From NCBI GenBank assembly GCA_934130105.1, contig CAKOXL010000004.1:1-63681 (forward strand): a stretch of 63,681 nt of DNA, in the 5' to 3' direction. Source of the DNA: an uncultured Bacilli bacterium. GTDB taxonomy: Bacteria; Bacillota_I; Bacilli_A; RF39; UBA660. The position numbers and the translations under genes are program-made. This document shows positions 4,873 to 30,000 of the stretch, in pieces. Within the stretch, counting starts at the first letter, position 1, and each line of letters opens with the position of its first letter. Below the pieces are notes generated by a model. The model ran no database searches. It worked only from the letters and a program-made list of their open reading frames with translations, and had not been told where the DNA came from.

Positions 4873-5559
4873 CTACTTTTCATCTAGTTCAAAGGCTTTT
4901 TCTAATAACATCATTTTTTTAACTTGTCTAATTGAAATTATGTATAATAATATAACGAATATTATATATATAATATAAAAGATATAGCTTTTACTCAACA
5001 AACAGAAATCATAAAAGCCATGTAATATAAATGGCATAAAAATACTTAGAAATAGGTATTTATTTTTTTTAGTTTTTTCACGTCTTTCTTTAGCAAATGA
5101 GAAAAAGTAACCACTACTTATACCAAAAAAAGCATGAGCCGGTACAGTCGTTATTGCCCTAATTATACCAGTTAATACGCCTCCTGTAACAGTATATAAT
5201 ATATTCTCAATAGTAGCAAAACCTAATGAGATAAAAGTCGCATATACTATTCCATCAAATAAATAATCAAAGTTTTTATTATTCTTTAAAAATAAATAAG
5301 TACAGATCCACTTTGATAATTCTTCAATTAAACTAATACCAATAAAAGAATAGATAATTGTATTTATAATGGTATCACTATTCATATTATTTACTTTAAA
5401 TAGATGTGATAAGACTAATGTTATAAAAACAGAGATTATTCCCATAAAATAAGCTTTAATAAGTTCTACTTTGGGTTCTTTTTCTTGTTTATAAGAATTA
5501 TATATTATTAAAGATATAACTAAACTAGGTAAAATAGATAACCATACTAAAAATTTCAT
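4873..5559 (-). CDS. prsW: PrsW family intramembrane protease
   Basis: EELSKW, HAFFG and HGFYDF motifs within a multi-TM protein. Confidence 0.7.
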   Translation of the reverse strand: MKFLVWLSILPSLVISLIIYNSYKQEKEPKVELIKAYFMGIISVFITLVLSHLFKVNNMNSDTIINTIIYSFIGISLIEELSKWICTYLFLKNNKNFDYLFDGIVYATFISLGFATIENILYTVTGGVLTGIIRAITTVPAHAFFGISSGYFFSFAKERREKTKKNKYLFLSIFMPFILHGFYDFCLLSKSYIFYIIYIIFVILLYIISIRQVKKMMLLEKAFELDEK

Positions 5560-12735: not shown

Positions 12736-13866
12736 TTACTCTGCTTCTTTTCTATTATAATTAAAGTTTAAAGGTTTTAGTTCATCTAATACAAACATAC
12801 CATTTTTTCTTATTAATACATCATCGAAATAGATTTCTCCACCACCATAATCTTCTCTTTGAATTAAAACCATATCCCAATGAATCCCAGAATCGTTTCC
12901 GTTGTAACAATCTTTATAAGCTTGACCTGGTGTGAAATGAATGCTTCCTAGTATTTTCTCATCATATAATATATCTCCCATTGGATATAAGATTTCAGGA
13001 TTAAAGCCAAGTGAAAATTCACCTACATATCTAGCACCTTCATCAGTATCAAATATTTCATTTAGTTTTTCATTATCTTCATCACAAGTAGCATGAATAA
13101 TTTTACCATCTTTAAATTCTAATGATACGTGGTTATATACTCTTCCTTGATATGGACTAGGTGTATTGTAAGTAATAGTACCATTGACTGATGTTTTTAC
13201 TGGAGCACTATAAAGTTCACCATCTGGTATGTTCATTTCTCCTACACAAGGGATACTGCCCATTCCTTTAATACTAAAGGTTAGATCAGTACCAGGAGAT
13301 ACTATTCTTACTTTATCTGTTTTATCCATTAATTTTTTTAATGGTTTTATTAGCTTGCCCATTTCTTCATAATTAACAGTCATAACATTAAGAGCAAATT
13401 CCATAAACTCGCGTGATGTCATTTTGGCTTTATAGCTATCAAGTAATGATGGGTAATTTAATAATACCCATTTTCTTTGGTTTACTCTTACATCACTTGA
13501 TGGAAGTAAGGCTTGACTTAATTTCTTTGACATTTCTCCAGATGCATTTTTGTTTTCATAGTCATTAGTAGCATAACGGATATTAATAAATGAATCAAAT
13601 AACTCTACCTCATTTTCCTGAATTTTTTTAAGTAGTTTAATTCTACCATCATTATTTCCTTCAGTAAGTTTAGCTCCAAGTATAGGATCATTAATTTTTA
13701 AACATGGTACTCCGCCATTTTTATAAATTTCATCAATTAAATAAGAAATAAATTCTCTTGTTTCCATTGATTGTGTTGTGATTAATACTTTCTCATCTTT
13801 TTCTACTCTAATTGAATAATTAACAATTAAACTTGCTAGTTCTTTTAATTTATCACTCATTTTCAC
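12736..13866 (-). CDS. Aminopeptidase, M29 (AmpS/PepS) family
   Basis: Overall M29-like sequence (IPDGELYSAP, GFNP, HWDMV). Confidence 0.8.
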   Translation of the reverse strand: MKMSDKLKELASLIVNYSIRVEKDEKVLITTQSMETREFISYLIDEIYKNGGVPCLKINDPILGAKLTEGNNDGRIKLLKKIQENEVELFDSFINIRYATNDYENKNASGEMSKKLSQALLPSSDVRVNQRKWVLLNYPSLLDSYKAKMTSREFMEFALNVMTVNYEEMGKLIKPLKKLMDKTDKVRIVSPGTDLTFSIKGMGSIPCVGEMNIPDGELYSAPVKTSVNGTITYNTPSPYQGRVYNHVSLEFKDGKIIHATCDEDNEKLNEIFDTDEGARYVGEFSLGFNPEILYPMGDILYDEKILGSIHFTPGQAYKDCYNGNDSGIHWDMVLIQREDYGGGEIYFDDVLIRKNGMFVLDELKPLNFNYNRKEAE

Positions 13867-13907
13867 TCTTTCCTTTCTTAAACATAAAATACTTTAGAGG
13901 TGATTTT

Positions 13908-14159
13908 ATGTATTCATACAATAATAATATGGATAAATATTCTAGAAATATGTATAGTCAAAATATAAATCCAAATAACGAACGTTTTGCTGGTGGATTT
14001 GTTGCACCATTACTACTTGGTGGCGTTGCTGGTTACGCAATAGGAAATACTAATAGACCAAATTACTACTATCCACAACCATATCAACCATACTATTATT
14101 ATCCTTATCCATACCCTACTTATTATAGCAATAATTATTACTATAATCCATATAATTAG
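13908..14159 (+). CDS. Small protein with a Gly-rich TM segment and a Tyr/Pro/Asn-rich tail
   Basis: AGAGGTGA RBS followed by an ATG at 13908. Sequence includes FAGGFVAPLLLGGVAGYAIG, then YYYPQPYQPYYYYPYPYPTYY. Confidence 0.45.
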   Translation: MYSYNNNMDKYSRNMYSQNINPNNERFAGGFVAPLLLGGVAGYAIGNTNRPNYYYPQPYQPYYYYPYPYPTYYSNNYYYNPYN

Positions 14160-14224: not shown

Positions 14225-15055
14225 TTATTTTGATAATTTTTTTATAGTATCGATATCTAATCCTGTTAAATCAGATATAGTAGAAATATCCATATCTTTA
14301 GCAAGCATGTTTTTAGCGATTTCTAATTGCTTCTTACTGGCACCTTCTTCAATACCATCTTCATAAGCTATTGCTTTTTCGGTATTTTTAATTAGTTCTT
14401 GGTCTTCTTCATAACTCATAAAACTTTGAAATGTTTCTTGATTATTTAAATCTGTCAATTTATCTTCATACTCTTTCACAAAATCATCTCCAATCGATAT
14501 TTTGTCAAGGTTATTTTGGTCTAAATCCAACATAATTAAATGTTTATATTCATTAACCTTGTTGTTATCTAAATTGTACCAATAATCAGTAATTTTGTCC
14601 ATATTGAATTCAATAATTTCAAAGTTATCAATATACCTTTTATCATTCTTATTCATAACATAATAATAAGAAACATCATCTACTTTTTTACTTAATCCAT
14701 AACTTAAATCAATATGTATGAATTTAGTTTTATAATCATACCTTTTACCACGGATTACTTTTCTAGAATAAATGTTAGTAAAATAAATAAAATTTCTAGT
14801 ATGCAAATAATCAGAATAGTTACAGTTTAACTCGATATGTAGATATTCATCACCATCTTTAACTAACACATCTACTATTTTAACTTTATCAATAGTACTA
14901 ATTACTGGTAATTCGTTTCTTAAAAATTCTATAATTTCTACATCCTTTTTTAAGATTCTAGATAATAATTTTTTTAATAATATGGGATTATCCTCATCAC
15001 AAAAGATAGTTTTAAATACTCGATCATATTTAGCCGTATAAAACTTAGTTACCAT
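14225..15055 (-). CDS. PD-(D/E)XK nuclease family transposase / Rpn-like recombination-promoting nuclease
   Basis: The N-terminus (YDRVFKTIF...) and the C-terminal helix-turn-helix-like tail (AKNML..ISDLTGLDIDTIKKL) are typical of this family. A paralog lies at 63496-63681. Confidence 0.7.
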   Translation of the reverse strand: MVTKFYTAKYDRVFKTIFCDEDNPILLKKLLSRILKKDVEIIEFLRNELPVISTIDKVKIVDVLVKDGDEYLHIELNCNYSDYLHTRNFIYFTNIYSRKVIRGKRYDYKTKFIHIDLSYGLSKKVDDVSYYYVMNKNDKRYIDNFEIIEFNMDKITDYWYNLDNNKVNEYKHLIMLDLDQNNLDKISIGDDFVKEYEDKLTDLNNQETFQSFMSYEEDQELIKNTEKAIAYEDGIEEGASKKQLEIAKNMLAKDMDISTISDLTGLDIDTIKKLSK

Positions 15056-15139
15056 ATTTTTCCTCCTTTTGTGCCATAATAACAGATAATAATAAGTATG
15101 TAAAATGTTCTATTTTATAAATTCAATGCAAAATAAAAA

Positions 15140-15177
15140 CCAATTTTAAATAATTACTAAAGAAAACTTAAAATTGG
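15140..15177 (-). terminator. Intrinsic terminator downstream of the DGR RT
   Basis: Minus strand: CCAATTTTAA...TTAAAATTGG stem followed by TTTTTATTTT. Confidence 0.55.
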
Positions 15178-15210
15178 CTTCATTATTTACTTTAATTTAC
15201 AAAAACATAT

Positions 15211-16242
15211 CTATTTTAAATAATCTTTGATAATAAACCTATCATGATATTTATTAATTAAATGGTAAGTATTAGCATGTCTTGCATGTGCTCTCCATGA
15301 ATTATAGCACATACGAATATTCGTAAAATCGAGCCTGTTATTTATAAAGTCAGTGTTTGCTTTTTTAACTAAAGCTTTTATTTTTTGCTTACTTCTTTTT
15401 CTGATTAAAAGATGGGTTTCATAAATTCGATATCCGCAAAAATCAACGCCTAAATTGTTAGGATAGTATTTACTTTTCCTATTAAGGTTAAGTTTTAATT
15501 TTTGATTTAAGAAAACTTCAATAAGTAATTTATATTTTCTTGCTTCTTTTTTATCGTTAACAAGTAATATAAAATCATCCATATAGCGGACATAATATTT
15601 AATCTTAAGGACTTCTTTTATATAATGATCAAGCTCATTTAAATATATATTAGCAAAGAATTGGGAGGTATAATTTCCAATAGGAATTCCTTTTCTATTA
15701 TTAGTATCATAAATTAATTTTCTAGTAAAAGTTAATAGTTTTTTATCACTAATATGGTGTTTCATAATTTCAAACAAAATATCTTTATCAATACTATAAA
15801 AATACTTTTGAATATCGCATTTTAAGATATAGTAATTATGTTTATTATGCCACATGATTTGCATATAATGTTGCAGTTGTTTTACCGCTTTATGAGTGCC
15901 TCTATTTTTAATGCAAGCATAAGTATCTTTTATGAACTTAGGTAAAATATATGGTAGTATAAACTCTTCAACATACCACTGATGGATAATTCTATCACGG
16001 TAAGGTAATGATTGAATAACTCTTTCTTTAGGTTCTGAAATTATAAATTCGTGATACTTTCCAACTTGGTAAGTATTATTTTTTACACTGCTATACAAAT
16101 TCATAAGGTTATTTTCTAAATCCATCTCAAATAAAATTACATCACTACGATTTCTTTTATTCTTAGAAGCTCTAATATGAGCATTATAAAATAGTATATA
16201 ATCAAGTTTATTATCAAACTGCTGTTTTATCGTTTTTGGCAT
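15211..16242 (-). CDS. DGR-type reverse transcriptase
   Basis: RT motifs KCDIQKYFYSID, IPIGNYTSQFFANIYL (the DGR-typical IGxxxSQ) and YVRYMDDF, with an adjacent TR/VR pair. Confidence 0.92.
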   Translation of the reverse strand: MPKTIKQQFDNKLDYILFYNAHIRASKNKRNRSDVILFEMDLENNLMNLYSSVKNNTYQVGKYHEFIISEPKERVIQSLPYRDRIIHQWYVEEFILPYILPKFIKDTYACIKNRGTHKAVKQLQHYMQIMWHNKHNYYILKCDIQKYFYSIDKDILFEIMKHHISDKKLLTFTRKLIYDTNNRKGIPIGNYTSQFFANIYLNELDHYIKEVLKIKYYVRYMDDFILLVNDKKEARKYKLLIEVFLNQKLKLNLNRKSKYYPNNLGVDFCGYRIYETHLLIRKRSKQKIKALVKKANTDFINNRLDFTNIRMCYNSWRAHARHANTYHLINKYHDRFIIKDYLK

Positions 16243-16586
16243 GATTTAATCCATCCACCTAATAAATTACATATGTTGGTTATTTTTTTACTCCATGCTT
16301 TATAATTATTGTTGTTAATATATTTTCTTTTATATGAAACTCTAACTAGTACTTTTAAAAATTTTATTTCATTATCTAGTAATGATAGATTATTTAATTT
16401 ATCGACTTTATCATATTGTTTATAAGCATTAATTATATATTTAATACCATTATAAGTAGTATTTTTAATTGTAGATACTAAAGATAATTTTTCACATTTA
16501 GGATATTTTTCAGTAATCATCTCTGTATAATAAATAAGTTCTATATATTGCTTATAAATTATTAGCTCTTCTACTACTTTAATCAT
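16227..16586 (-). CDS. avd: Avd-like accessory variability determinant (four-helix-bundle / 23S rRNA IVS protein family)
   Basis: 119 aa, basic and helical, with a KYPKCEKLSLVSTIKN..Y motif like the FPKxEKxxL family. It overlaps the RT start. Confidence 0.75.
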   Translation of the reverse strand: MIKVVEELIIYKQYIELIYYTEMITEKYPKCEKLSLVSTIKNTTYNGIKYIINAYKQYDKVDKLNNLSLLDNEIKFLKVLVRVSYKRKYINNNNYKAWSKKITNICNLLGGWIKSCQKR

Positions 16587-16974
16587 TTAGTATCACCTTT
16601 AATTCATAAAGAAAGTTGATTGCTTCAAGTGGTGTTAGTGTATTTATATCTATATTTTTTAATTTCTGTTCTAATTTAATATATTTTTGGGGAATTTCAG
16701 TCTTTTTTATTATGTTTTCTATTTCTTTTGTTTCAACTATCTGGATATCTAATTTATGATTATGGAAAACGCGCATATAATCTTCTAGTTTAACGTCTGG
16801 GAAACCACATTTATTTACTTCGTTCGTAAATTTGGTTTGTTTTAATACTACATACTGATTAATAGTATTAGCATCTTCTGATATGAAAATATAAAATTTT
16901 CCATTATGAAAAAGATATAATTTATCAGGATTATCTTGTTTTAATTTTAAATATTCATTATAAATTTTACTCAT
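16579..16974 (-). CDS. MutS domain-I-like small protein (DGR MSL-type accessory)
   Basis: YLKLKQDNPDKLYLFHNGKFYIFISEDANT...CGFP...Y resembles the MutS mismatch-binding N-domain (YxxxKxxxPDxxLLFRxGDFYExFxxDA...AGxP). A GAAGGAG RBS precedes the ATG at 16974. Confidence 0.6.
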   Translation of the reverse strand: MSKIYNEYLKLKQDNPDKLYLFHNGKFYIFISEDANTINQYVVLKQTKFTNEVNKCGFPDVKLEDYMRVFHNHKLDIQIVETKEIENIIKKTEIPQKYIKLEQKLKNIDINTLTPLEAINFLYELKVILND

Positions 16975-17001
16975 ACTACTCCTTCTTTCTAAAAAATATT
17001 T

Positions 17002-17032
17002 AAAAAAAAGCAGCACAAAAAAATTGTACTGC
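17002..17032 (-). terminator. Intrinsic terminator between the TR spacer and the accessory genes
   Basis: Minus strand: GCAGTACA-ATTTTTT-TGTGCTGC (8-bp stem with one G-U pair) followed by T8. Confidence 0.55.
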
Positions 17033-17340
17033 TAATCATGATATCTGATATTCGTATATTACTACTAACCAAATACCACTATTTATGTGTTTCTTTGAAG
17101 TTCAAAGAGGAATTTGATTTCTACGATAAACACTCAAAAATTATCCTTGAATAATTTTAATAGAATGAATTTAATTAAATTTTATATTGTAGTCTAAGAG
17201 CGAGAACGACACGGAACGAAATGTTGGTGTTCGTACCACCTGTGTTGTTGTTGAACGCAAAGGAACCGGCTTCAGTGCCATTGTTCCAATTGCCACCACG
17301 TTCGAACCAAGGGTTAGAAGAATTAACAAAGTTGGCGTTT
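17010..17340 (-). ncRNA. Putative DGR RNA (TR plus about 165-nt spacer ending at a terminator)
   Basis: The TR is noncoding: its frame runs into a stop after VVLALRLQYKI and has no RBS. A noncoding spacer and a terminator hairpin follow it. Confidence 0.45.
17198..17340 (-). repeat. DGR template repeat (TR)
   Basis: 143-bp match to 17554-17696. All differences are at plus-strand T, which is A on the coding strand. The frame is rich in AAC (Asn) codons. Confidence 0.92.
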
Positions 17341-17430
17341 GAAAAATGAGAAAAAAATACTACCTTTACAATCAAATCCCTACATTTGTACTATATATAT
17401 TTCAAAATTACAAATGCCATAATTTAAAGT

Positions 17431-17467
17431 CTCCCGATTTTTTTCAAAAAAGGGAAAAAATCGGGAG
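17431..17467. other. Perfect 13-bp-stem hairpin between VR and TR
   Basis: CTCCCGATTTTTT (17431-17443) pairs with AAAAAATCGGGAG (17455-17467) around an 11-nt loop. No canonical U-tract follows on either strand. Confidence 0.6.
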
Positions 17468-17542
17468 CCATAGAACTTACCGCAGTAAAAAATATGAAGA
17501 TAAAGATTTTATCATACTATCTACTACGGGGTTAATAGCACA

Positions 17543-19453
17543 TTACTGTGCTGGAGCGAGAACGACACGGAACGAAATGCTGGTGTACGTACCACCTGTG
17601 CTGAGGCTGAACGCAAAGGAACCGGCTTCAGTGCCATTGCTCCAATGGCCACCACGTACGAACCAAGGGTAAGAAGAATGAACAAAGTAGGCGTAATCTT
17701 TATACCAACTAGATTTATATCTAGTACTACCATCTGGATCTTTTTCACTACCAAATGGTCCCATCTCTCCTGTTGCATCTCCTAATATTCTGTTATTATA
17801 ATTTGTATTTACAGTTGATGCATATTTATTCCAGTACTTAGTGTAAGTACTATCACTAAAGAAATTAGGATATAAACTAGTTATACCACTTGATCCACCA
17901 ACTGTTGTTGCTTTAGTAGTATATCCCATTACATACTCCCATGCGCCACCTGACATATCATATATTCCACTATAATTACCAGTTGTTGATGAAACAGTAG
18001 AATTATTATTAAAATAATTAACGGTATATGTTCCATCAACACCTAAACTAGTTGACTCTACTCTATTACCTTCTATACTTATTCCGCTATTATATCCTAA
18101 GGTTGGTTCACTTGTTCCAGAATATCCGGTTATATAACTTGAGTTATTATTTATTCTTACACTTGCTTGACTACCATATACTGAATGCTGTAAATAAGCT
18201 ACTGCTCCCCATTCTGTATTTTTCATCATATGACTATCTAAATTACGATTATAATCATAACTATTCTTGAATGCGTTCCCAACAGTTATACTTCGCCAAC
18301 TATATACATTGGGTTTTATGATAATTTTACTTGTATCTACACTATTTACTTGGGCAGACGTCGTTGATGTTGCTCCATCATATCCTGTTTCAAACTTTCC
18401 TACCCATAAACCATTTGTATCAAAAGCTATGAATGCTGGATGAGTTAGATATGTTCCTACCGTACTTCCAGTAGATGGTGTTGTTTCTTTATTTTCAAAT
18501 ATAATATCTATTGTTTGAGTAGAATTTCCAATACTTGTTAGTCCTGTATATGTTCCTTCATTAAATATTTTATATCTATATCTTGGTATCCATACAAAGT
18601 ATGATTCAATATTTGTTTCTGGTATTACTTCTCCATCTTGGTAAGTAATACTTTCATCTTTTAAGATAACGCTATTAGCCCACTTTTTATCAGCATAACT
18701 ATACCAAGCTGTTGTAGTATCCGCTTTAGTTACTACTCCTGTATCTGATATTACTACTGGTATTAGATTATCAGATATAACTGGATATGCTCCATTTAAA
18801 ATGGCTTCTTTATAAGCTATTTTATCTTGCTCTAATACTTTACCTGTTGAATATACATTTACTGTTATCGTAAACGCTTTATTATTTATGCTTCCATCTG
18901 AAAAATCAGTATCATCTGATAACCACATTCTTAATCTAAAATTCTTTTCATAGTTTGATGTATTAGCTGATACTTCTCCTTCATAGATAGTCTTTTCTAT
19001 TACCCCATCCGGTACTTTAGTATTAGTTTGAATTAGATTTGAATATTTATCTAATAGTATTTCCTTTTCAGTTCCATCTACTTCAGTTAAGTATAACTTT
19101 ACGTCATCTTCATCTAAGGTAGAATCACTCTTTTTTCTTGCTGTTACTTCATATGAAATACTAGAGTTCATTTCTATTGTTGAGGTTATCTTAAAATCAA
19201 ATACCTTTCCTTCACCTGTTTGAAGTTTTCCTTCTTCATCACTTATTGGAAATGCATCAGTTAAACTTATACCTTTTCCTATTCCACTTACTTCAGTATA
19301 TAGAAAGTTTATCTTACCTGTTTTTACGATATTATCAGTTACACCTGTTTTAGAATAAGTGAATAGTGAATAACTTACTCCAACTGTTATCAATATTAAA
19401 CTTAATACTGCTATTAGTGTCAAAAATATCTGCTTCTTCTTACTATTTTTCAT
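17543..19453 (-). CDS. DGR target protein: N-terminally anchored or secreted, with a C-terminal FGE-sulfatase/C-type-lectin-like (CLec) domain carrying the VR
   Basis: Signal/TM sequence and a VSYSLFTYSKTG motif that may be a SipW/TasA-like signal. FGE-like GGAWEYVMG. The C-terminus RGGHWSNGTEAGSFAFSLSTGGTYTSISFRVVLA equals the VR. Confidence 0.9.
   Translation of the reverse strand: MKNSKKKQIFLTLIAVLSLILITVGVSYSLFTYSKTGVTDNIVKTGKINFLYTEVSGIGKGISLTDAFPISDEEGKLQTGEGKVFDFKITSTIEMNSSISYEVTARKKSDSTLDEDDVKLYLTEVDGTEKEILLDKYSNLIQTNTKVPDGVIEKTIYEGEVSANTSNYEKNFRLRMWLSDDTDFSDGSINNKAFTITVNVYSTGKVLEQDKIAYKEAILNGAYPVISDNLIPVVISDTGVVTKADTTTAWYSYADKKWANSVILKDESITYQDGEVIPETNIESYFVWIPRYRYKIFNEGTYTGLTSIGNSTQTIDIIFENKETTPSTGSTVGTYLTHPAFIAFDTNGLWVGKFETGYDGATSTTSAQVNSVDTSKIIIKPNVYSWRSITVGNAFKNSYDYNRNLDSHMMKNTEWGAVAYLQHSVYGSQASVRINNNSSYITGYSGTSEPTLGYNSGISIEGNRVESTSLGVDGTYTVNYFNNNSTVSSTTGNYSGIYDMSGGAWEYVMGYTTKATTVGGSSGITSLYPNFFSDSTYTKYWNKYASTVNTNYNNRILGDATGEMGPFGSEKDPDGSTRYKSSWYKDYAYFVHSSYPWFVRGGHWSNGTEAGSFAFSLSTGGTYTSISFRVVLAPAQ
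17554..17696 (-). repeat. DGR variable repeat (VR) with a GC-rich IMH-like 3' end
   Basis: See the TR entry. The 3' end on the coding strand, CCGTGTCGTTCTCGCTC, is identical in TR and VR; the flanks then diverge (VR CAGC, TR TTAG). Confidence 0.92.
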
Positions 19454-19972
19454 AAAACTTCTCCTTCTGGTATCTAAGTTATATACTTAAACACTAGAAG
19501 ATGTCTGAATTAGCCTTAATACATAGGAAAATAGTTAATTATTGTAGTAAATCGTTTGTTGTTTTTTTATGTGTAGCAATTATTAAAAGTCGCAAAATAA
19601 AAGACTATAAGATAAACTTGATAGTCTCTAATTATATAACTTAAGGCCCTATTTTTACGATTTAATTGTATCAAATAGTAATTTTAAAAGCAAGGATAAA
19701 TTAAAAATTTAAAAAACTATCATAACAATTTAGATGTAATTTAATTATAGATAATTAATTCTTTAACAAAGAAACAGAAAAGACCTTTCAAAATTTGAAA
19801 AGTCTTTTTTAGTAGGAGTAATTTTATTTATGAAAACTTTTATACAAAGTTTAATTGATATATTAATATATATCAGGATTTATTATTTATTATCACTTCT
19901 CCTTTCAACACTACCAGTATATAAAATAATTATGATAAAAATATAAAATAATTATGGGAAATTATGGGAATG

Positions 19973-21868: not shown

Positions 21869-24800
21869 TTATTTTATATCAAATTCTTCAACATATTTAA
21901 CATAATCAACCCTACCACGCTTTACAACAAAGCAATAATTATTTGGGATTGTTTCTTTCATTTCTGGTATCTTTTGATTTATTTTAATAGAAAACTGATC
22001 GTTAATACCATTTCCTACCCAAATACCATAATTATTGGTAACACATTCTTTATACCAAGATTCAAACTCATTTTTCTTAATTTTATCAATACTATCTATT
22101 ATAATAAATTTAATTATTCCTAATTTATTAGCTTTTAAAAACATATTATTAAATTCATTTTTATTTTCATTATTTAATCCTAGTTTAAATTGATCAATAC
22201 CAATTATTAAGCATATTAATTTATTAATTTCTTTAGAATTATTATATGCTTCTTTACTGATTAAATAATTACTTAATTCTGTAAATATTAAATCAAAGTT
22301 AGAATCGACATATCTATAATCGCTTTTATTTTTTATATCATAATCAAGCGCATTTATAACTAGTAGAGTTTCATTTTTATATAGTATTTGGTTTATAAGA
22401 GGATTTACTAATGGTTCTGTTTGGTTTACATCATTTGCTGTTATAATAGAGACTGTATTTTTATTAAAGTCAAACTCATTTACTAATAAATCTTGCTTGT
22501 TTAAACCTATTATATAATTGTTAGTATTTAAATATTTTTCTATAACATTTCCATTAACAATTGTTGGAAGCATTGGTATCTTTGGTGCTGATGTAGTATT
22601 ATTGCTATACTCTAAACATTTTTCTTTAATAAATCTAGGGATATCATCCTTATCACTAACTAATGCTGTTTGAAATTCATAGACATCATCATCTTTAAAT
22701 ATTCCACGTCCAAATATTTTACTAGGATATGTTTTATGAACATTACCTAAAATAGTAGTAAAATCGTCATTATTATTTTGAGCTAGTGCATAAATTAAAC
22801 TAAAGTTTTGTTTTAGTTTAAATCTAACACCATTAGGTGTATTAGCTAAAACTATGAAATAGATGCCATATTTGTTACAATCTCTAGTAATACTATTTAA
22901 AATATCATCATATTTATTAGAAAGCTCCGTAAATGCCTCAAAATTATTTATAATAATTATCATTGATGGTACTTGGCTACCACTATTTCTACAGTAATTA
23001 TAATAATCACCATTATAATCCTGAAAAAGATTTTTTCTTTTATTAATGTTCGTTTCTATCATTTTAAATAAATTTTCTAGTTTGTCACTATCATCTGATG
23101 TAACAATATCACCAACAATAGTAGAATCTTTAAACATATTAAGTGCACCTGTACCATAGTCAACTATGTAATAATTTACTTCTTTAGCATTATAGTAAAG
23201 CATAGAAGAATATATTAAGGTTGTTATGAAGTTTTCTTTTCCGGAACCACTTGCACCATATATAATAGTATTGCCATTCTTGGATATTGGAAGTGTTAAA
23301 AGTTTTTGCTCTTGTCTTTTAGGTATATCATATTCACCAATTATTGGATTAATAACAAACATTTGCTTTTCATAATTATATTTAAGCGCTAAATCTTCTA
23401 TTTTTATCATATCAGGTATTTTTTCTAACCATAAAGGTGTTGTTATTACATTTAATTGATTTGCTTCATTTTGTAAATACTTGACAATGTTAACTAACTC
23501 CTCACCATTTGATTTAATGTTAGTTTCTTTCTTTTTCGTTTCAACATTTTTATAAATATACCCAATATTATTAATAAAATCGATATTAGTATCAATATTT
23601 TTTTTAGCTTTTTCACGTGGAATATATTTACCACCTGCCCAACTAGCTTGTCCTAAAACAAACACTTCATTGTAACCAACTTGAAAATAAAATCTACCCG
23701 TTTGTTTTAAATAAGCAGCATCAGGGCATTTTATAACTTCATTGGAATCCGATTTTTCTTGTACACGCATGCAAACTCTAAATCTAGTATTACTCCAAAT
23801 TTGAGGATCTACAACGCCACTTGGCTTTTGCGTTGCTAATATTAAATGAACTCCAAGTGATCTACCTATACGAGCTGTTGATATTAGTTGTTGCATAAAT
23901 TCTGGTTGTTGGCTTTTAAGTTCAGCAAACTCATCACTTATTATAAATAAATGGGATATAGGAATATCAACGATTTTATCTCTATACATTTTTTGATATT
24001 TATAAATGTCTATTGTACTTTCACCAGATAACTCCCTTGCTTTATTGAATAGAGTTTGCCTACGTTTAAGCTCTGATTCAATAGATGCTAAACTTCTTTT
24101 TATCTCATTGCTATCTAAGTTAGTAATTGTGCCAACTAAGTGTGGTAATTTTAAACCTGTTGTTTTATTTTCAAAAGCACCAGCTAAGCCACCACCTTTA
24201 TAATCTATTAATATAAATTGAACTTCATATGGATGGTAATTAATAGCCATAGATAGAATATAAGTAATAATAAATTCACTTTTACCACTACCCGTCGAAC
24301 CTGCTATTAAACCATGTGGGCCATGATATTTTTCATGCAAATCAATGCTAATTTTTTCTTGATTTTTTCCTAGACCAACTGGGGCTTGTAAACTTAGTAT
24401 TGGATTATTGTTTTGCCATCTATTAATAGAGTTTAATTGTTCAACTTTACCAACATCAAACATTTCTAAAAAGCCTAACTTATTAGGAAGTTTACCGTCT
24501 TTTGATGATTGAATTTCAATTGGAATATTAGCAAGTTTTTTTACAGTACTGTAGTAATCTAAAACTTGATTTATATCGTATTTAAACTTTAAAGGTTCAA
24601 TATAATATTGCCCAACGTGCATTTCTCCTGTACCATTGTTTAAAGTTATAAAAGCTTTACATTCACTTGGCAAATCCGTAATTTTCTTATCTATTATAAC
24701 CATAGAAAATCCCAAATTAACTTTAGATTTAACTATATTATTTATAAAATCGTAATTTCTGATTGCTTTATAGCTATCGGTTATAATTAAATAAGTTTCA

Positions 24801-26449
24801 GTTAATTCATCTCTTTTAATTTCTCTATTTAATTCTTTTCTTTGATTAAAGATTCTATCTAAATAGTAGCATACTTCTTTATATTCATCATTGTTAGTTG
24901 CATAAAAACGGATTTCTCTATCATTAGTAAATAAATGTGGCAAATCTTTTAAATAAGCGTAATCTTTTTCTTTTTCTGAATCGGTAAATATAACTATTTT
25001 TAAATTATCATAGCTTTGATTGGTGATACATTCTAAAATGATATTTTTTAAATATTTATTTGTTTCACTATAATTACCAATTAATCCAGTAACATAATTA
25101 TCATATAGAGAATAAATAATTGGAACATTTGAAAGTAATTTTGGTTCCGTACCTAGTGAATGTAACATATCTTTTAAATTATCTTGAAATAAAGAAAAAT
25201 GTTCTTCTGGATATTTAATATCTATTTTCATAGGATAGTTACCAATACCAAGTCTAATAACTAAATAATCATCGTCTTCTATTCTTCTTTGCCATAAAGT
25301 AGTATATTTGTTTAAAATAATTTCTTCGCATTCTTTTAATCCTGGGTAATTATTATTTAGTATTTCTGATTGCCTGTTTTTAGCATTTTTTATTTCTTGG
25401 CGTTTATCCTCAATATAAGCGCTGTATTTTTTTTGTCTTTCTTTTTCTTTCTTTTTTCTATTTCTTAATTCAACTTTTTTTGATATAGTCGGCCAAATAA
25501 GTACACTTGCAAACATAGCACCACACATAACAAGTGATGGAATAGCATTTTTGATACTTGAATTACCATTCATTATATTGTTAACAGAAGTATATGCTGA
25601 CACTAAAGATGTCATTGACATTGTTAGCATTGGTCCGATTGTTAAAAGAAGAGATGATTCTTTTTCTTCTGCTTTATTAGGTGGTGCATCAACATTTAAT
25701 GTTAATGTTTGAATTTTAGGAATGAATCTTGGTGTTTTATGGAAGTAATCTGATTCATCGTATAGTTGTATATCTTGTTCTTCTTGTTCCACTAACTCCT
25801 CATTTGATTGATTTTTGATATCAATAAGATTTGTTAATAATAAATTTGCCTGAACTTCTAAATTATTAGAATTATTTAAATATAGATAATATATGTCGCA
25901 TGCTTCATGCTTTTTTATGACATAAAGCATAATACCTTCAATAAAAACAATATCAGCATTTTTTAGTACCATTTTATTTACTAATCTCATATTGCTAACA
26001 TAAATTGGAACCTTACTATTATCATCAATGATAACTAAATCTTCATTTTCTTTTTTGATAGTTATATTAACTTCATTAAGAAGAGGCGAAGTTATTGAAC
26101 CTAATTGTCCTATCTTAAGTCCGGTTAAAATATAATTAGTTATATCATAGCAATTATATTTTTGAAAAACATTAGAGCAATATAAAATGATATTTTCATT
26201 AGTTTCTTTATTTTTTAAAAATATAAATTGGTTATCTATTAACACCTTAAATGGTTCTATAACACCATTATTTATAATATAGACATCATCATTACTAATT
26301 AAGTGCCAAGTATTATCAGTTGCTTCAATATTAATTAAATTTTTTCTATTACCAGCTTTATCCAAATCTGTTATCCAATAACTACCACTAATCTGTTCTG
26401 GTAATATTAAGTCTATTTTTTTATCTTTTTTTATAAGTGATACTCTCAT
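21869..26449 (-). CDS. essC: T7SSb FtsK/SpoIIIE-family ATPase EssC/YukB
   Basis: FHA-like N-terminus and two TM segments. D1 has an intact Walker A/B (GSTGSGKSE, IISDEFAEL, ATQKP). D2 has GASGSGKEN and a NNFE Walker B. D3 has no P-loop. Confidence 0.9.
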   Translation of the reverse strand: MRVSLIKKDKKIDLILPEQISGSYWITDLDKAGNRKNLINIEATDNTWHLISNDDVYIINNGVIEPFKVLIDNQFIFLKNKETNENIILYCSNVFQKYNCYDITNYILTGLKIGQLGSITSPLLNEVNITIKKENEDLVIIDDNSKVPIYVSNMRLVNKMVLKNADIVFIEGIMLYVIKKHEACDIYYLYLNNSNNLEVQANLLLTNLIDIKNQSNEELVEQEEQDIQLYDESDYFHKTPRFIPKIQTLTLNVDAPPNKAEEKESSLLLTIGPMLTMSMTSLVSAYTSVNNIMNGNSSIKNAIPSLVMCGAMFASVLIWPTISKKVELRNRKKKEKERQKKYSAYIEDKRQEIKNAKNRQSEILNNNYPGLKECEEIILNKYTTLWQRRIEDDDYLVIRLGIGNYPMKIDIKYPEEHFSLFQDNLKDMLHSLGTEPKLLSNVPIIYSLYDNYVTGLIGNYSETNKYLKNIILECITNQSYDNLKIVIFTDSEKEKDYAYLKDLPHLFTNDREIRFYATNNDEYKEVCYYLDRIFNQRKELNREIKRDELTETYLIITDSYKAIRNYDFINNIVKSKVNLGFSMVIIDKKITDLPSECKAFITLNNGTGEMHVGQYYIEPLKFKYDINQVLDYYSTVKKLANIPIEIQSSKDGKLPNKLGFLEMFDVGKVEQLNSINRWQNNNPILSLQAPVGLGKNQEKISIDLHEKYHGPHGLIAGSTGSGKSEFIITYILSMAINYHPYEVQFILIDYKGGGLAGAFENKTTGLKLPHLVGTITNLDSNEIKRSLASIESELKRRQTLFNKARELSGESTIDIYKYQKMYRDKIVDIPISHLFIISDEFAELKSQQPEFMQQLISTARIGRSLGVHLILATQKPSGVVDPQIWSNTRFRVCMRVQEKSDSNEVIKCPDAAYLKQTGRFYFQVGYNEVFVLGQASWAGGKYIPREKAKKNIDTNIDFINNIGYIYKNVETKKKETNIKSNGEELVNIVKYLQNEANQLNVITTPLWLEKIPDMIKIEDLALKYNYEKQMFVINPIIGEYDIPKRQEQKLLTLPISKNGNTIIYGASGSGKENFITTLIYSSMLYYNAKEVNYYIVDYGTGALNMFKDSTIVGDIVTSDDSDKLENLFKMIETNINKRKNLFQDYNGDYYNYCRNSGSQVPSMIIIINNFEAFTELSNKYDDILNSITRDCNKYGIYFIVLANTPNGVRFKLKQNFSLIYALAQNNNDDFTTILGNVHKTYPSKIFGRGIFKDDDVYEFQTALVSDKDDIPRFIKEKCLEYSNNTTSAPKIPMLPTIVNGNVIEKYLNTNNYIIGLNKQDLLVNEFDFNKNTVSIITANDVNQTEPLVNPLINQILYKNETLLVINALDYDIKNKSDYRYVDSNFDLIFTELSNYLISKEAYNNSKEINKLICLIIGIDQFKLGLNNENKNEFNNMFLKANKLGIIKFIIIDSIDKIKKNEFESWYKECVTNNYGIWVGNGINDQFSIKINQKIPEMKETIPNNYCFVVKRGRVDYVKYVEEFDIK

Positions 26450-27002: not shown

Positions 27003-30000
27003 TTAATTCCAATGTATAGATGATGTTCCAATTCGAAAACAACCACCGTCAAATAAATCTTCAAATTTAATATAATATTTATTTCCCCATGAACTTATGA
27101 TAAATCCATAATCAGCTATACCTGTTATAGTAACAGAATGTCCTACTATACTTGGAGTTTCATTTCCCCTATCTTCATGCCAATCATTTGTAGAAATAGA
27201 ACGATAACTTTGAGGATCATAGGAATATGCAACTATTTGGTGAGTTGAATCTATTAATTTATAATAACCCATATCAAGTGCAATTTCATCATCATTTAAT
27301 ACCTTAGTCAATAAAGCTATTATTTGTTTTTGCTCTTCAATTGGATATTTAGTTGTATCAAAATTATCAATAAAGAAACTAGATTCATAACTCAACTTTT
27401 GATCTTTACTCTTTAAGAATTTATTTATTGTATCATCATCTCTTCCTTCACTTCCTGACATATATTTTTGTTTTTTTGCTTTCAATGTATCTCTTCCATA
27501 TATATCAATAGTTTCTGGACTAAAATATTCTTTATTTAATTCATACCCTCCATTAATATTTTTCTTTATAAAATGTCCACCATTTTCTTCACTATTTGCA
27601 AACACATATAAGTCTAATAATAATTCAGAAGAATTGAATTGTCCATTTTGTTTATACATATCATAACCAAATATTTTTTTAAAATAACCTTCCCTGTTCC
27701 TAAATAAATAATATATATTATTACATACACTTGCATATGAACAAGCACCAGCTGCATTTACAGTATCCATTATTACAGCAGAATCGTTAGATGTAAATCC
27801 CATGTTTATAAGCTTATTTTTTAAATAAGTATACTCTTGGGTACTTATTCTTTTAAAATGAGGAATAACTTCTCCATTTTGCTTTGCTTCTTTAATCATA
27901 CTTATAGCTGTACTATAATTATATTTTTTACCGTTTAATTCATAAACAGATAATTTTTCAATAGCCGCCTGGTCTACTCCGTAATCACCTTCTATATGAT
28001 CATTAAAGAAATTATATGTTTCAAGCCTTTTATCAGTAAAATCCAAATCTAGTAAATATTCTTGTATATACTCAGTTGGTATATCGGATATTTTTTGTTT
28101 TACATCATCAACTGCTATTTTATTAATATCATCAGTGCTAAAATACTCTTTTAATTGTTTAATTCCAACATTTTTTCCGAGTCTTTGGTCAATAAGATTA
28201 ACCAACGAATCTATGTCGCCATAGTAATTTCTGACATCGTTTGCATCTGAGTTAAATTCATGTTCGAATAATTTTAATTCTCTATGAATTTGTAGCATTT
28301 CTAAATCTTGAATGGTATAGGATGGATTCTGATTATTTTTCATTTTTGTTATAAAATCTTGATATTCTTTTGTTTTTGAAATTTCTAATAAATCATTATA
28401 CCTTTCCATTTTTTCTTGAACTGTATTTATTTTTTCTTTTTTTGCATTTGTAATATTTAATTTAGATCCAATAGCATCAAAAAAGTTATATTTATATCCG
28501 GCAATACCATTTTCACTTTTTGTTTTAAATCCCGATAAAGTTAGTTCATTTAAATCATGCGTACTAACTTCAATAATACCCGTATTCTCATGGTATGCAA
28601 AATATTTATATGTACCATCTTCTTGTTTAATTGAAGTAATATTTATTAATTCTACTTTTCCATTTGATTTTAATCTATATAAATCGGTTCCACTTATAAT
28701 ATCTGATTCTGTTGCAGATAAACTTTTAACAAGAGACAATATATAAGATTTTGCTTCTACATATCCTAATTTTGATAAATCAGCTACTTCATTTAGTTTT
28801 AATAATTTACTCTCAACTAAATTAGATAAATTATCACTGGAAACATCAGTATTTGCTATGTTAGAGCGAACTGTATCTAAAACATTATTATAACTTTTTT
28901 TAATATAGTTTAAACCTTTATCAATTTCTAAAAGTTCATTATAAAACGATTTTTGATCATCAAGATTTGCATTAAAAAATGGATATTTACCTGATTGTGC
29001 ATCTTCCAAAGTGGTAAATTTACTAATAGGATAAAACATATCTGTTTGTTCACCTTGTGATATTTTTGCTAAATCATTTAAATAAGAATTGTTTTTAGTT
29101 GCATCAGCTAGAAAATATTTCCCATCAACTTCAAATTCAACCCACGCATGATTTGCTGATTTTATTTCAGAATTAATTCCAACACTTAAAAGTAATTCAT
29201 TATAAATTTTAGACCAACTTTTGCATATAATCTTACCATTTAAAATAGAATTATCATTAATGTCTTTACTATCAGTTAATATTTTAAATCCAATATTTTC
29301 ATTCGGATTACTATTTAAATTTTCATCAAATCCTACTCTTTTAGATAATTCTAAATATAAAAATCTTGCTTTTTCAAAATCAGTTAAACCACTAGGAATT
29401 GACTCTATTATATTTTGTTTTAAATCTCCGACGGTTGTAATATTATCATTTTCATTTACTTTTTTAATCAAATCTGTATATTTTAAATTACGTAATTTTT
29501 GACTATTAATGTTTACGATATTCTTTATATTATCTTTAATACTAGTTAACTCTGATAAAATAGATGTTTTTATATTTAAGAATTTATTTTTTACATTAAG
29601 TACAAAATTTTTCAATCCAAGGTACTTAGGATTAATGTTTAAGTTTTTTGCTATATTTGATACTTTGCCGTTTATTGAATCATACATTGTCATTATTTCA
29701 TGATCTAGTAATGCCATTTCATTTTTAATTTTTAAAAATTCTGTTTCACTATCATATATTTCTATTGTGTTTTCTGAATTCAATTTTTCAATGAATGCTT
29801 TATATTCTGGGGTATTAGTTTTATCAACTAATTCTTTATATCTATCCATCTTTTCTTGTAATATTTTTTCTAAATCAATATTTGAATTTGATACTTGCTG
29901 TTTACCAGAATCAGTTATACTATTACTATTAAGTTTATCATTTATACTATTTATTTCATCACTAAGCAATGCTCTATATTCTGGTGTATCAAGTTCTTTT

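Follow-up and report, generated by a model that had tools for sequence, protein, structure and literature searches.

A predicted two-domain MutS-like protein encoded in a diversity-generating retroelement of an uncultured gut Bacilli bacterium

Wu et al. 2018 (NAR 46:11, PMC5758913) reported accessory genes with homology to MutS (MutS-like, MSL) in 16 of 372 diversity-generating retroelements (DGRs) and designated the DGRs containing them 'Architecture D'. In the parts of that survey dealing with the class, MSL proteins are given as 112-283 aa in length with an isoelectric point (pI) of 7.2 ± 1.7, always accompanied by avd and never by HRDC (PMC5758913). Here we analyze one such element, located on a 63,681-nucleotide stretch of DNA (the whole of which is referred to as the window; contig CAKOXL010000004.1 of assembly GCA_934130105.1), with emphasis on its accessory gene, msl. 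The locus is a genuine chromosomal DGR of the MSL class from an uncultured gut Bacilli/Tenericutes-like bacterium. Its Msl protein, as judged from sequence comparison and a structural model, is a predicted 'mini-MutS', in which the wedge-bearing domain I of MutS is joined directly to the C-terminal helix-loop-helix oligomerization domain of MutS.

An earlier note on this DNA, made without database searches, had stated that MSL genes were already on record in DGR surveys and that their role was not established; the former agrees with Wu et al. 2018 (PMC5758913), and the latter holds in the searchable literature, where reviews and a study of Bacteroides DGRs repeat the label without a function. 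The Bacteroides study lists Msl only for the DGRs Bfr, Bth, and Bun (10.1101/2024.11.15.621889). The published accounts of MSL (PMC5758913, in its passages on the class, and 10.1101/2024.11.15.621889) mention only MutS homology or a mismatch-recognition domain, to which the present analysis adds a MutS C-terminal domain (MutS_C) and the absence, throughout the family, of the Glu of the mismatch-contacting Phe-x-Glu motif. Also new here are the linkage of msl to DGRs across two gene orders and an RNA unit composed of the template repeat (TR), an RT-14-like domain, and a terminator.

In the DGR of phage BPP-1, components are arranged in the order mtd-avd-TR-brt. The element in the window shares with it adenine-specific information flow from TR to the variable repeat (VR), a VR located at the 3' end of the target gene with a hairpin 3' of it, the combination of Avd and reverse transcriptase (RT), and structured RNA 3' of TR. 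It differs in being chromosomal rather than phage-borne, in having avd downstream of TR, in containing the extra accessory gene msl, and in its overall order (target-TR-structured RNA-terminator-msl-avd-RT). The earlier note had called this architecture non-canonical, which is correct with respect to BPP-1, but a layout with MSL is not new, the survey text having already set up an Architecture D for MSL-containing DGRs (PMC5758913).

All parts of the DGR are encoded on the minus strand. The target open reading frame (ORF; 17543-19453, 636 aa) carries VR (17554-17694) in its 3' end, the repeat ending 11 nt ahead of the stop codon. Directly 3' of VR, and extending across the stop codon, is a 6-bp hairpin (AGCACA-GUAA-UGUGCU, 17537-17552), recognized from the sequence and from its minimum free energy fold, which lies at the position corresponding to that of the target-recognition hairpin of BPP-1. 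TR (17198-17338), in which AAC and AAT codons are abundant and which contains 33 adenines, starts 205 nt past the target stop codon, lies 356 nt downstream of VR, and ends 223 nt ahead of the start of msl. Together, TR and VR form a 141-nt direct repeat with 91% identity, and all 12 mismatches between them affect adenines of TR (five A->T, four A->G, and three A->C); such adenine-only differences are far from a chance pattern and represent the signature of a DGR. TR is followed by msl (16579-16974, 131 aa from ATG), avd (16227-16586, 119 aa), and the RT gene (15211-16242, 343 aa), which form a tight operon with overlaps of 8 nt between msl and avd and 16 nt between avd and RT. The avd product was matched by bAvd (E = 6.8e-20), NCBIfam DivGenRetAVD (E = 1.3e-20), and phrog_3206, 'Avd protein of DGR' (E = 4.1e-24), and the RT by RVT_1 (E = 7.6e-17) and phrog_1423 (E = 7.2e-110); the RT motif IGNYTSQ, read from the translation, fits the DGR-type [I/L]GxxxSQ. 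The locus thus combines the properties by which a DGR is recognized, namely adenine-confined TR/VR differences, a DGR-type RT, and a VR at the target 3' end with a flanking hairpin. These coordinates and profiles agree with the earlier placement of TR after the target gene and ahead of the MutS-like gene, avd, and RT, and with the claim that two overlapping accessory ORFs separate TR from RT.

At 131 aa and pI 6.84, with MutS homology, an accompanying avd, and no HRDC gene among the cassette ORFs, all of which are accounted for (ORF list and Pfam profiles), Msl has every feature of the MSL class as set out in the class description of Wu et al. (PMC5758913), and the locus belongs to this already described class. 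The msl start codon is preceded by an AAGGAG ribosome-binding site, and every homologue begins MSKIY. A longer, GTG-initiated msl ORF (145 aa, extending to 17016) was rejected, as it crosses the terminator hairpin described below and disagrees with this common start.

Domain composition of Msl

Residues 3-88 of Msl correspond to MutS domain I and residues ~96-130 to a predicted MutS C-terminal helix-loop-helix, the two being separated by a linker modeled with low confidence. Against Pfam MutS_I, the protein scored 48.4 bits (E = 1.3e-12; cut-off 20.6) over residues 6-89, equivalent to positions 5-92 of the 113 in the profile. An AlphaFold2 (AF2) model of Msl, generated from 39 homologues, has a mean predicted local distance difference test (pLDDT) score of 90.3. 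In a Foldseek search of the PDB, all 50 of the top matches (E <= 0.001) were MutS/MSH domain I, and 49 of the 50 superpose on Msl with a root-mean-square deviation (rmsd) of ~1.5-2.6 Å over 69-84 aligned columns. Among viral structures, those matched were small gut-phage 'MutS domain I' proteins and the MutS7 of giant viruses. In comparison with E. coli MutS (1e3m, 7ai6; C-terminal domain 2ok2 / 3zlj chain C), domain I is shared with an rmsd of ~1.9 Å and 24% identity, as are the intercalating Phe, with which the second β-hairpin strand begins, the conserved GxP loop, and the C-terminal Thr-Pro cap.

Approximately 720 residues of MutS have no counterpart in Msl, including the connector, core/lever, clamp, and ABC ATPase domains, which cannot fit in a protein of 131 aa. 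NCBIfam MutS equivalogs scored 32-37 bits against Msl, with cut-offs of 480-642, and the only domains found were MutS_I (Pfam) and MutS_C (weak, precomputed Pfam). Phe27, equivalent to E. coli Phe36, is kept in 264 of 265 aligned relatives, while the position equivalent to Glu38 is Ile in Msl and predominantly Ile (225), Leu (23), or Val (10) in relatives, with Glu in none of 268. In MutS, Glu38 forms a hydrogen bond to the mismatched base and is required for mismatch/homoduplex discrimination and ATPase signaling (PMC3848065). No β-clamp-binding motif is conserved in the Msl linker, which is variable and gapped across the family. Having no Glu38, clamp, or ATPase, Msl is not MutS proper, and the missing domains, the Glu38-to-Ile replacement, and the lack of a linker β-clamp motif together imply that it cannot form a sliding clamp, hydrolyze ATP, or recruit MutL.

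The assignment of the remaining C-terminal segment to MutS_C is based on one-target tests, a collinear phmmer match, and a precomputed Pfam match. Using phmmer against PDB sequences, Msl residues 93-128 aligned to E. coli MutS 817-852 as part of a collinear two-domain match, and full-length MutS chains scored ~9 bits above 800-residue truncations. A profile of the C-terminal segment alone, in a one-sequence search, matched E. coli MutS 828-853, that is, only its extreme C-terminus (E = 8.7e-6), and hhalign of residues 96-130 against the MutS C-terminal domain gave a probability of 92.3% (E = 5.5e-7). In the reverse direction, the best tblastn match of E. coli MutS in the 63.7-kb window was the Msl C-terminal segment. 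The precomputed Pfam annotation of the exact Msl protein includes PF27441 MutS_C, flagged as weak. When the C-terminal profile was searched against all PDB sequences, the MutS C-terminal fusion 2ok2 was recovered without significance (E = 0.57), behind spurious leucine-rich-repeat matches. The AF2 model places helices at residues 96-107 and 115-130 after the low-confidence linker, and Thr114-Pro115, which is conserved in the family, aligns with MutS T838-P839. These two model helices match the helix-loop-helix of the MutS C-terminal domain, a domain that folds and oligomerizes in isolation, is needed for MutS tetramers, and is required for full mismatch repair (MMR) and anti-recombination (PMC1636413).

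The earlier note had described the 131-aa protein as reading like an isolated MutS domain I without ATPase or clamp domains, and had proposed profile, superposition, and Phe-x-Glu checks. Both the profile similarity and the superposition proved significant, and the absence of ATPase and clamp domains stands. 'Isolated' has to be amended, seeing that the domain I is real but the C-terminal ~35 residues match the MutS helix-loop-helix domain, and only half of the Phe-x-Glu motif remains, the Phe being near-invariant and the Glu absent both here and in the relatives.

Distribution of msl and linkage to DGR reverse transcriptases

A word-indexed search with Msl yielded 181 clusters at 90% identity, nearly all of them 115-140 aa in length. 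When 1.84 billion representatives were searched exhaustively with a profile, 1045 had E <= 1e-3, and 244 of these had E <= 1e-10. The family is large, with at least 244 clusters at 50% identity at the latter threshold, and its members are compact and well conserved. The best 150 profile matches were 71-205 aa throughout, and most of the non-truncated ones cover both domains. With the exception of three JGI entries labeled MutS ATPase, relatives of Msl were unnamed in all sources. An alignment of 39 Msl sequences at 46-65% identity contains 25 invariant columns, and the family pI is 7.0 ± 1.5 (Avd of the window, 9.58).

We found 98 msl loci in species-representative genomes and analyzed the best 80, over ~12 kb per genome. 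Hosts were nearly all uncultured gut Bacilli, 'Tenericutes', or Erysipelotrichaceae, represented by metagenome-assembled genomes. The msl-avd-RT order of the window was observed in 64 of the 80 loci, and in 54 of these 64 avd and RT overlap by the same 16 nt. Five loci displayed the order avd-TR-RT-msl, with RTs 23-26% identical to that of the window, and one displayed msl...avd...RT, with an RT 36% identical. In three loci the contig ends just past msl, and in seven there is no RT within 4-6 kb of msl. Excluding the three interrupted loci, a DGR RT is found beside msl in 70 of 77 informative genomes (91%), in at least two arrangements; the conserved linkage for which the earlier note had proposed a check therefore holds.

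The five avd-TR-RT-msl loci (class 2; L007, L057, L059, L063, L074) represent a second DGR lineage, organized as target-avd (186 aa)-TR-RT (385-395 aa)-msl, in which msl overlaps the RT stop codon and the 186-aa Avd was matched by PHROG with E = 1.9e-7. Several of the loci having msl but no RT (L032, L042, L051, L054, L080, the partial L067, and L076, with a fused 217-aa ORF) look like decayed DGR cassettes retaining msl, as they share a chromosomal site with RT-bearing relatives: msl of L051 precedes rpsB-tsf, the same site as class-2 RT-msl cassettes, and msl of L032 precedes rnc-smc, like the complete cassette in L066.

VR/TR pairs with adenine-biased differences were found upstream of msl in 42 loci, the remaining loci being mostly short of upstream sequence because of contig breaks at the repeat. 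Contigs often stop a few hundred bases upstream of msl (for example L003-L005, L014, L016-L018, L035, L046, L053, L065, and L075), and these frequent contig ends are consistent with assembler breaks at TR/VR, in which case complete cassettes are under-counted. A 215-kb contig (JAQVKM010000001.1) carries two whole target-TR-msl-avd-RT cassettes ~130 kb apart (L030, 13416-25766; L034, 143129-155479), whose match coordinates and identities are identical; the pair reflects either duplication of the DGR or an artefact of assembly. T-box leaders, unrelated to the DGR, occur a few kb downstream of the cassette in L031 (8005-8188) and L016 (3762-3917).

The Msl family is essentially absent from sequenced phages. 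No relative was matched in the INPHARED phage genomes, and the sole viral-contig homologue (L084, IMGVR_UViG_3300045988_146392, 5001-5384), which has 35% identity and likewise Phe-Tyr-Ile, adjoins lysis genes and lies 2.3 kb from an Avd-like ORF and an RT on the opposite strand.

Structured RNAs and genomic surroundings

The 223-nt spacer between TR and msl folds far better than shuffled sequences (z = -5.1) and contains, at 17037-17163 on the minus strand, a structured RNA resembling Rfam RT-14 (RF02921). This match extends over model positions 1-144 and, with 40 bits (E = 4.4e-4), falls short of the gathering score, which is 48.1. The likeness lies in its position between TR and the accessory/RT genes and in the UUAGUAG...CGAAUA internal loop; the outer first helix is missing from the window copy. 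An Rfam search of 16 related loci at the gathering threshold returned no RT-14, and E-value mode returned four loci with the element at the syntenic position. These are L035 (48.5 bits, the sole related locus above threshold), L001 and L037 (44-45 bits), and L004. A 19-locus alignment of the element reveals three helices, including the terminator, with compensatory changes in 22 of 28 predicted pairs. The RT-14-like RNA probably represents the 3' 'spacer' domain of the DGR RNA.

An intrinsic-terminator-like hairpin (AGCAGUACA...UGUGCUGCU, 17009-17033, minus strand), followed by a U-run, separates msl from the DGR RNA. It is the only terminator-like site within 14900-19700, and the hairpin and T-run are kept, with covariation, in most related loci. 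TR forms the 5' portion of a separate RNA unit consisting of TR, the RT-14-like domain, and the terminator, and this unit marks the likely 3' end of the DGR RNA in the clade. Such an organization would allow RNA comprising TR and the structured domain to be made in excess, with terminator read-through giving low, stoichiometric amounts of Msl, Avd, and RT.

A long inverted repeat (CUCCCGAUUUUUU / AAAAAAUCGGGAG, 17431-17467, minus strand) is located between the target gene and TR. The region 17339-17560 folds with z = -5.1, and none of 200 shuffles folded equally well. Going by its sequence, the repeat is a possible terminator or insulator of the target transcript.

The target gene, in which VR lies, encodes a surface protein. 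A hydrophobic anchor is present at its N-terminus, and the variable domain at its C-terminus is weakly FGE-sulfatase/C-type-lectin-like, the FGE-sulfatase match (E = 0.011) falling short of the cut-off. Homologous target genes are found upstream of msl in most related loci. Neighboring genes in the window include nusA, infB, an ftsK/spoIIIE-family gene, and a uvrD-like helicase gene; a prophage origin was rejected on account of these genes, the lack of a match in INPHARED, and a single distant match in IMG/VR.

Directly downstream of the DGR RT is a gene for a PD-(D/E)XK_2 (Rpn/transposase-like) nuclease (14225-15055, minus strand); the independent assembly L082 has the same neighbor, with a weak HTH_Rpn_C match. 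The window and L082 are identical in VR, TR, msl, avd, and RT, while the center of the target gene (18000-18600) contains 61 mismatches within ~600 nt, and a stretch farther upstream of it is 91% identical; these target-gene differences outside VR represent strain-level mosaicism. A 1526-aa FtsK/SpoIIIE-family ATPase of EssC-like size is encoded ~2.4 kb from the target gene (21869-26449, minus strand) and adjoins a 1916-aa ORF without a Pfam match (27003-32753, minus strand), and the two may constitute a secretion or surface-protein locus. On the plus strand, a putative 108-aa ORF (13833-14159) has a tail that is extremely rich in Tyr, Pro, and Asn (…YYYPQPYQPYYYYPYPYPTYYSNNYYYNPYN).

Possible roles of Msl

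The reading that we favor, if only tentatively, is that Msl, as a non-signaling mimic of MutS, keeps host mismatch repair away from cDNA/VR heteroduplexes. RT and Avd would generate adenine-mutagenized cDNA, which upon pairing with VR would form a heteroduplex containing a dense cluster of mismatches, and host MutS would otherwise detect these mismatches and revert or abort the event. Msl, probably dimerizing via its C-terminal domain, could prevent this either by placing its Phe wedge on the mismatches or by binding as a cap to the host MutS C-terminal domain, such that no repair- or anti-recombination-competent MutS tetramers would form; in either case the mutagenized VR would persist. Being translated together with Avd and RT, Msl would remain low and local in its activity, sparing the cell from becoming a general mutator. 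A more specific proposal, that Msl is a retroelement-encoded dominant-negative MutS, that is, a two-module decoy (Glu-less wedge plus oligomerization domain) that partly co-oligomerizes with host MutS and thereby blocks MMR and anti-recombination locally, is conceivable but in our view rather doubtful.

Experimental work on other DGRs is consistent with a need for protection from repair. In the Bacteroides Bov DGR, which contains no Msl, deletion of host mutS raises VR mutagenesis 5-10-fold in an all-or-nothing manner (10.1101/2024.11.15.621889). An engineered E. coli DGR suppresses MMR via a dominant-negative MutL, the rationale for which was the existence of MutS-like homologues in natural DGRs (10.64898/2026.07.21.739853), and another engineering group deletes mutS to preserve the substitutions introduced by the DGR. 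The earlier suggestion that Msl protects or recruits heteroduplexes is plausible.

Several observations weigh against shielding from repair by Msl. The near-neutral pI of Msl is not expected of a strong DNA binder, and domain I alone gives full-length MutS little DNA affinity, the DNA being held by the clamp domains. The residues forming the salt bridge of the E. coli MutS tetramer, D835 and R840, are not both kept, their positions being occupied by N/D and L/I/K, respectively. The VR of the window is identical to that of the independent assembly L082 and so gives no sign of present-day activity, and the seven loci noted above retain msl with no RT nearby. Searches for a full-length mutS found none in the window or, over ~12 kb per genome, in the 80 related loci, a result that is uninformative on the host as a whole; RF39 genomes keep mutSL, and mutS is present in only 33% of RFN20, pointing to a difference between lineages (10.1101/2020.01.21.914887). 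MutS is dispensable for BPP-1 retrohoming, according to work cited in the survey text (PMC5758913), and most DGRs function without Msl. Finally, the searchable literature contains no experiments on any Msl.

The main alternative is that Msl acts independently of repair and, instead of opposing it, serves in targeting or annealing. Its Phe wedge would recognize the distorted or mismatched cDNA/VR joint, D-loop, or flap, and an Msl oligomer would tether the RT-Avd-cDNA complex to the target or help the highly diverged cDNA to anneal; we regard this as possible but on balance doubtful. Such a factor would work even without host MutS, and it agrees with the translational coupling of msl with avd and RT and with the linkage of msl to at least two RT lineages in differing gene orders. 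Three DGR RTs have a weak MutS_I-like C-terminal extension, which, within what the survey reports of them, suggests closeness of this domain to RT (PMC5758913), and without Glu38 discrimination should be relaxed, permitting the binding of more DNA shapes (PMC3848065). However, BPP-1, the constitutively active Bacteroides Bov DGR, and most other DGRs retrohome without Msl, the near-neutral pI speaks against a general nucleic-acid annealing protein, and a targeting role does not account for the retention of specifically the C-terminal domain of MutS.

A role on the RNA side, in which Msl binds the TR RNA/cDNA hybrid or the RT-14-like domain and affects priming, template choice, or adenine misincorporation, we consider very unlikely. 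While msl directly follows a conserved structured RNA and terminator, and A-mispairs arise first in the RNA:cDNA hybrid, class-2 msl is located after RT and far from the TR RNA, so adjacency to the RNA is not conserved. Moreover, adenine mutagenesis in BPP-1 is intrinsic to RT-Avd, and MutS domain I binds the minor groove of duplex DNA.

Least probable of all is that Msl has no DGR-specific function and is a hitch-hiking MutS fragment or a host factor nearby by chance, since the seven genomes with an intact-looking or partial msl and no RT in the flanks are set against strong purifying conservation (25 invariant columns in 39 sequences), a confidently predicted fold, 91% adjacency to DGR RTs over two gene orders, and the occurrence of several RT-less loci, resembling decayed cassettes, at the sites of RT-bearing relatives.

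The combination of MutS_I and MutS_C, in which the Phe is present but the Glu is not, offers concrete predictions for a class of proteins whose role has so far lacked them: dimerization through the C-terminal domain, binding of mismatched or distorted DNA without signaling, and epistasis with mutS. Should shielding of heteroduplexes from mismatch repair fail as an explanation, repair-independent targeting would become the leading model. Engineers must disable mismatch repair for DGRs to work in E. coli, and if Msl does counteract repair, its addition would benefit targeted mutagenesis based on DGRs or retrons. Should it further act as a dominant-negative MutS, no retroelement factor dedicated to countering mismatch repair would have preceded it, and genome-editing tools built on DGRs and retrons could take it up ready-made.

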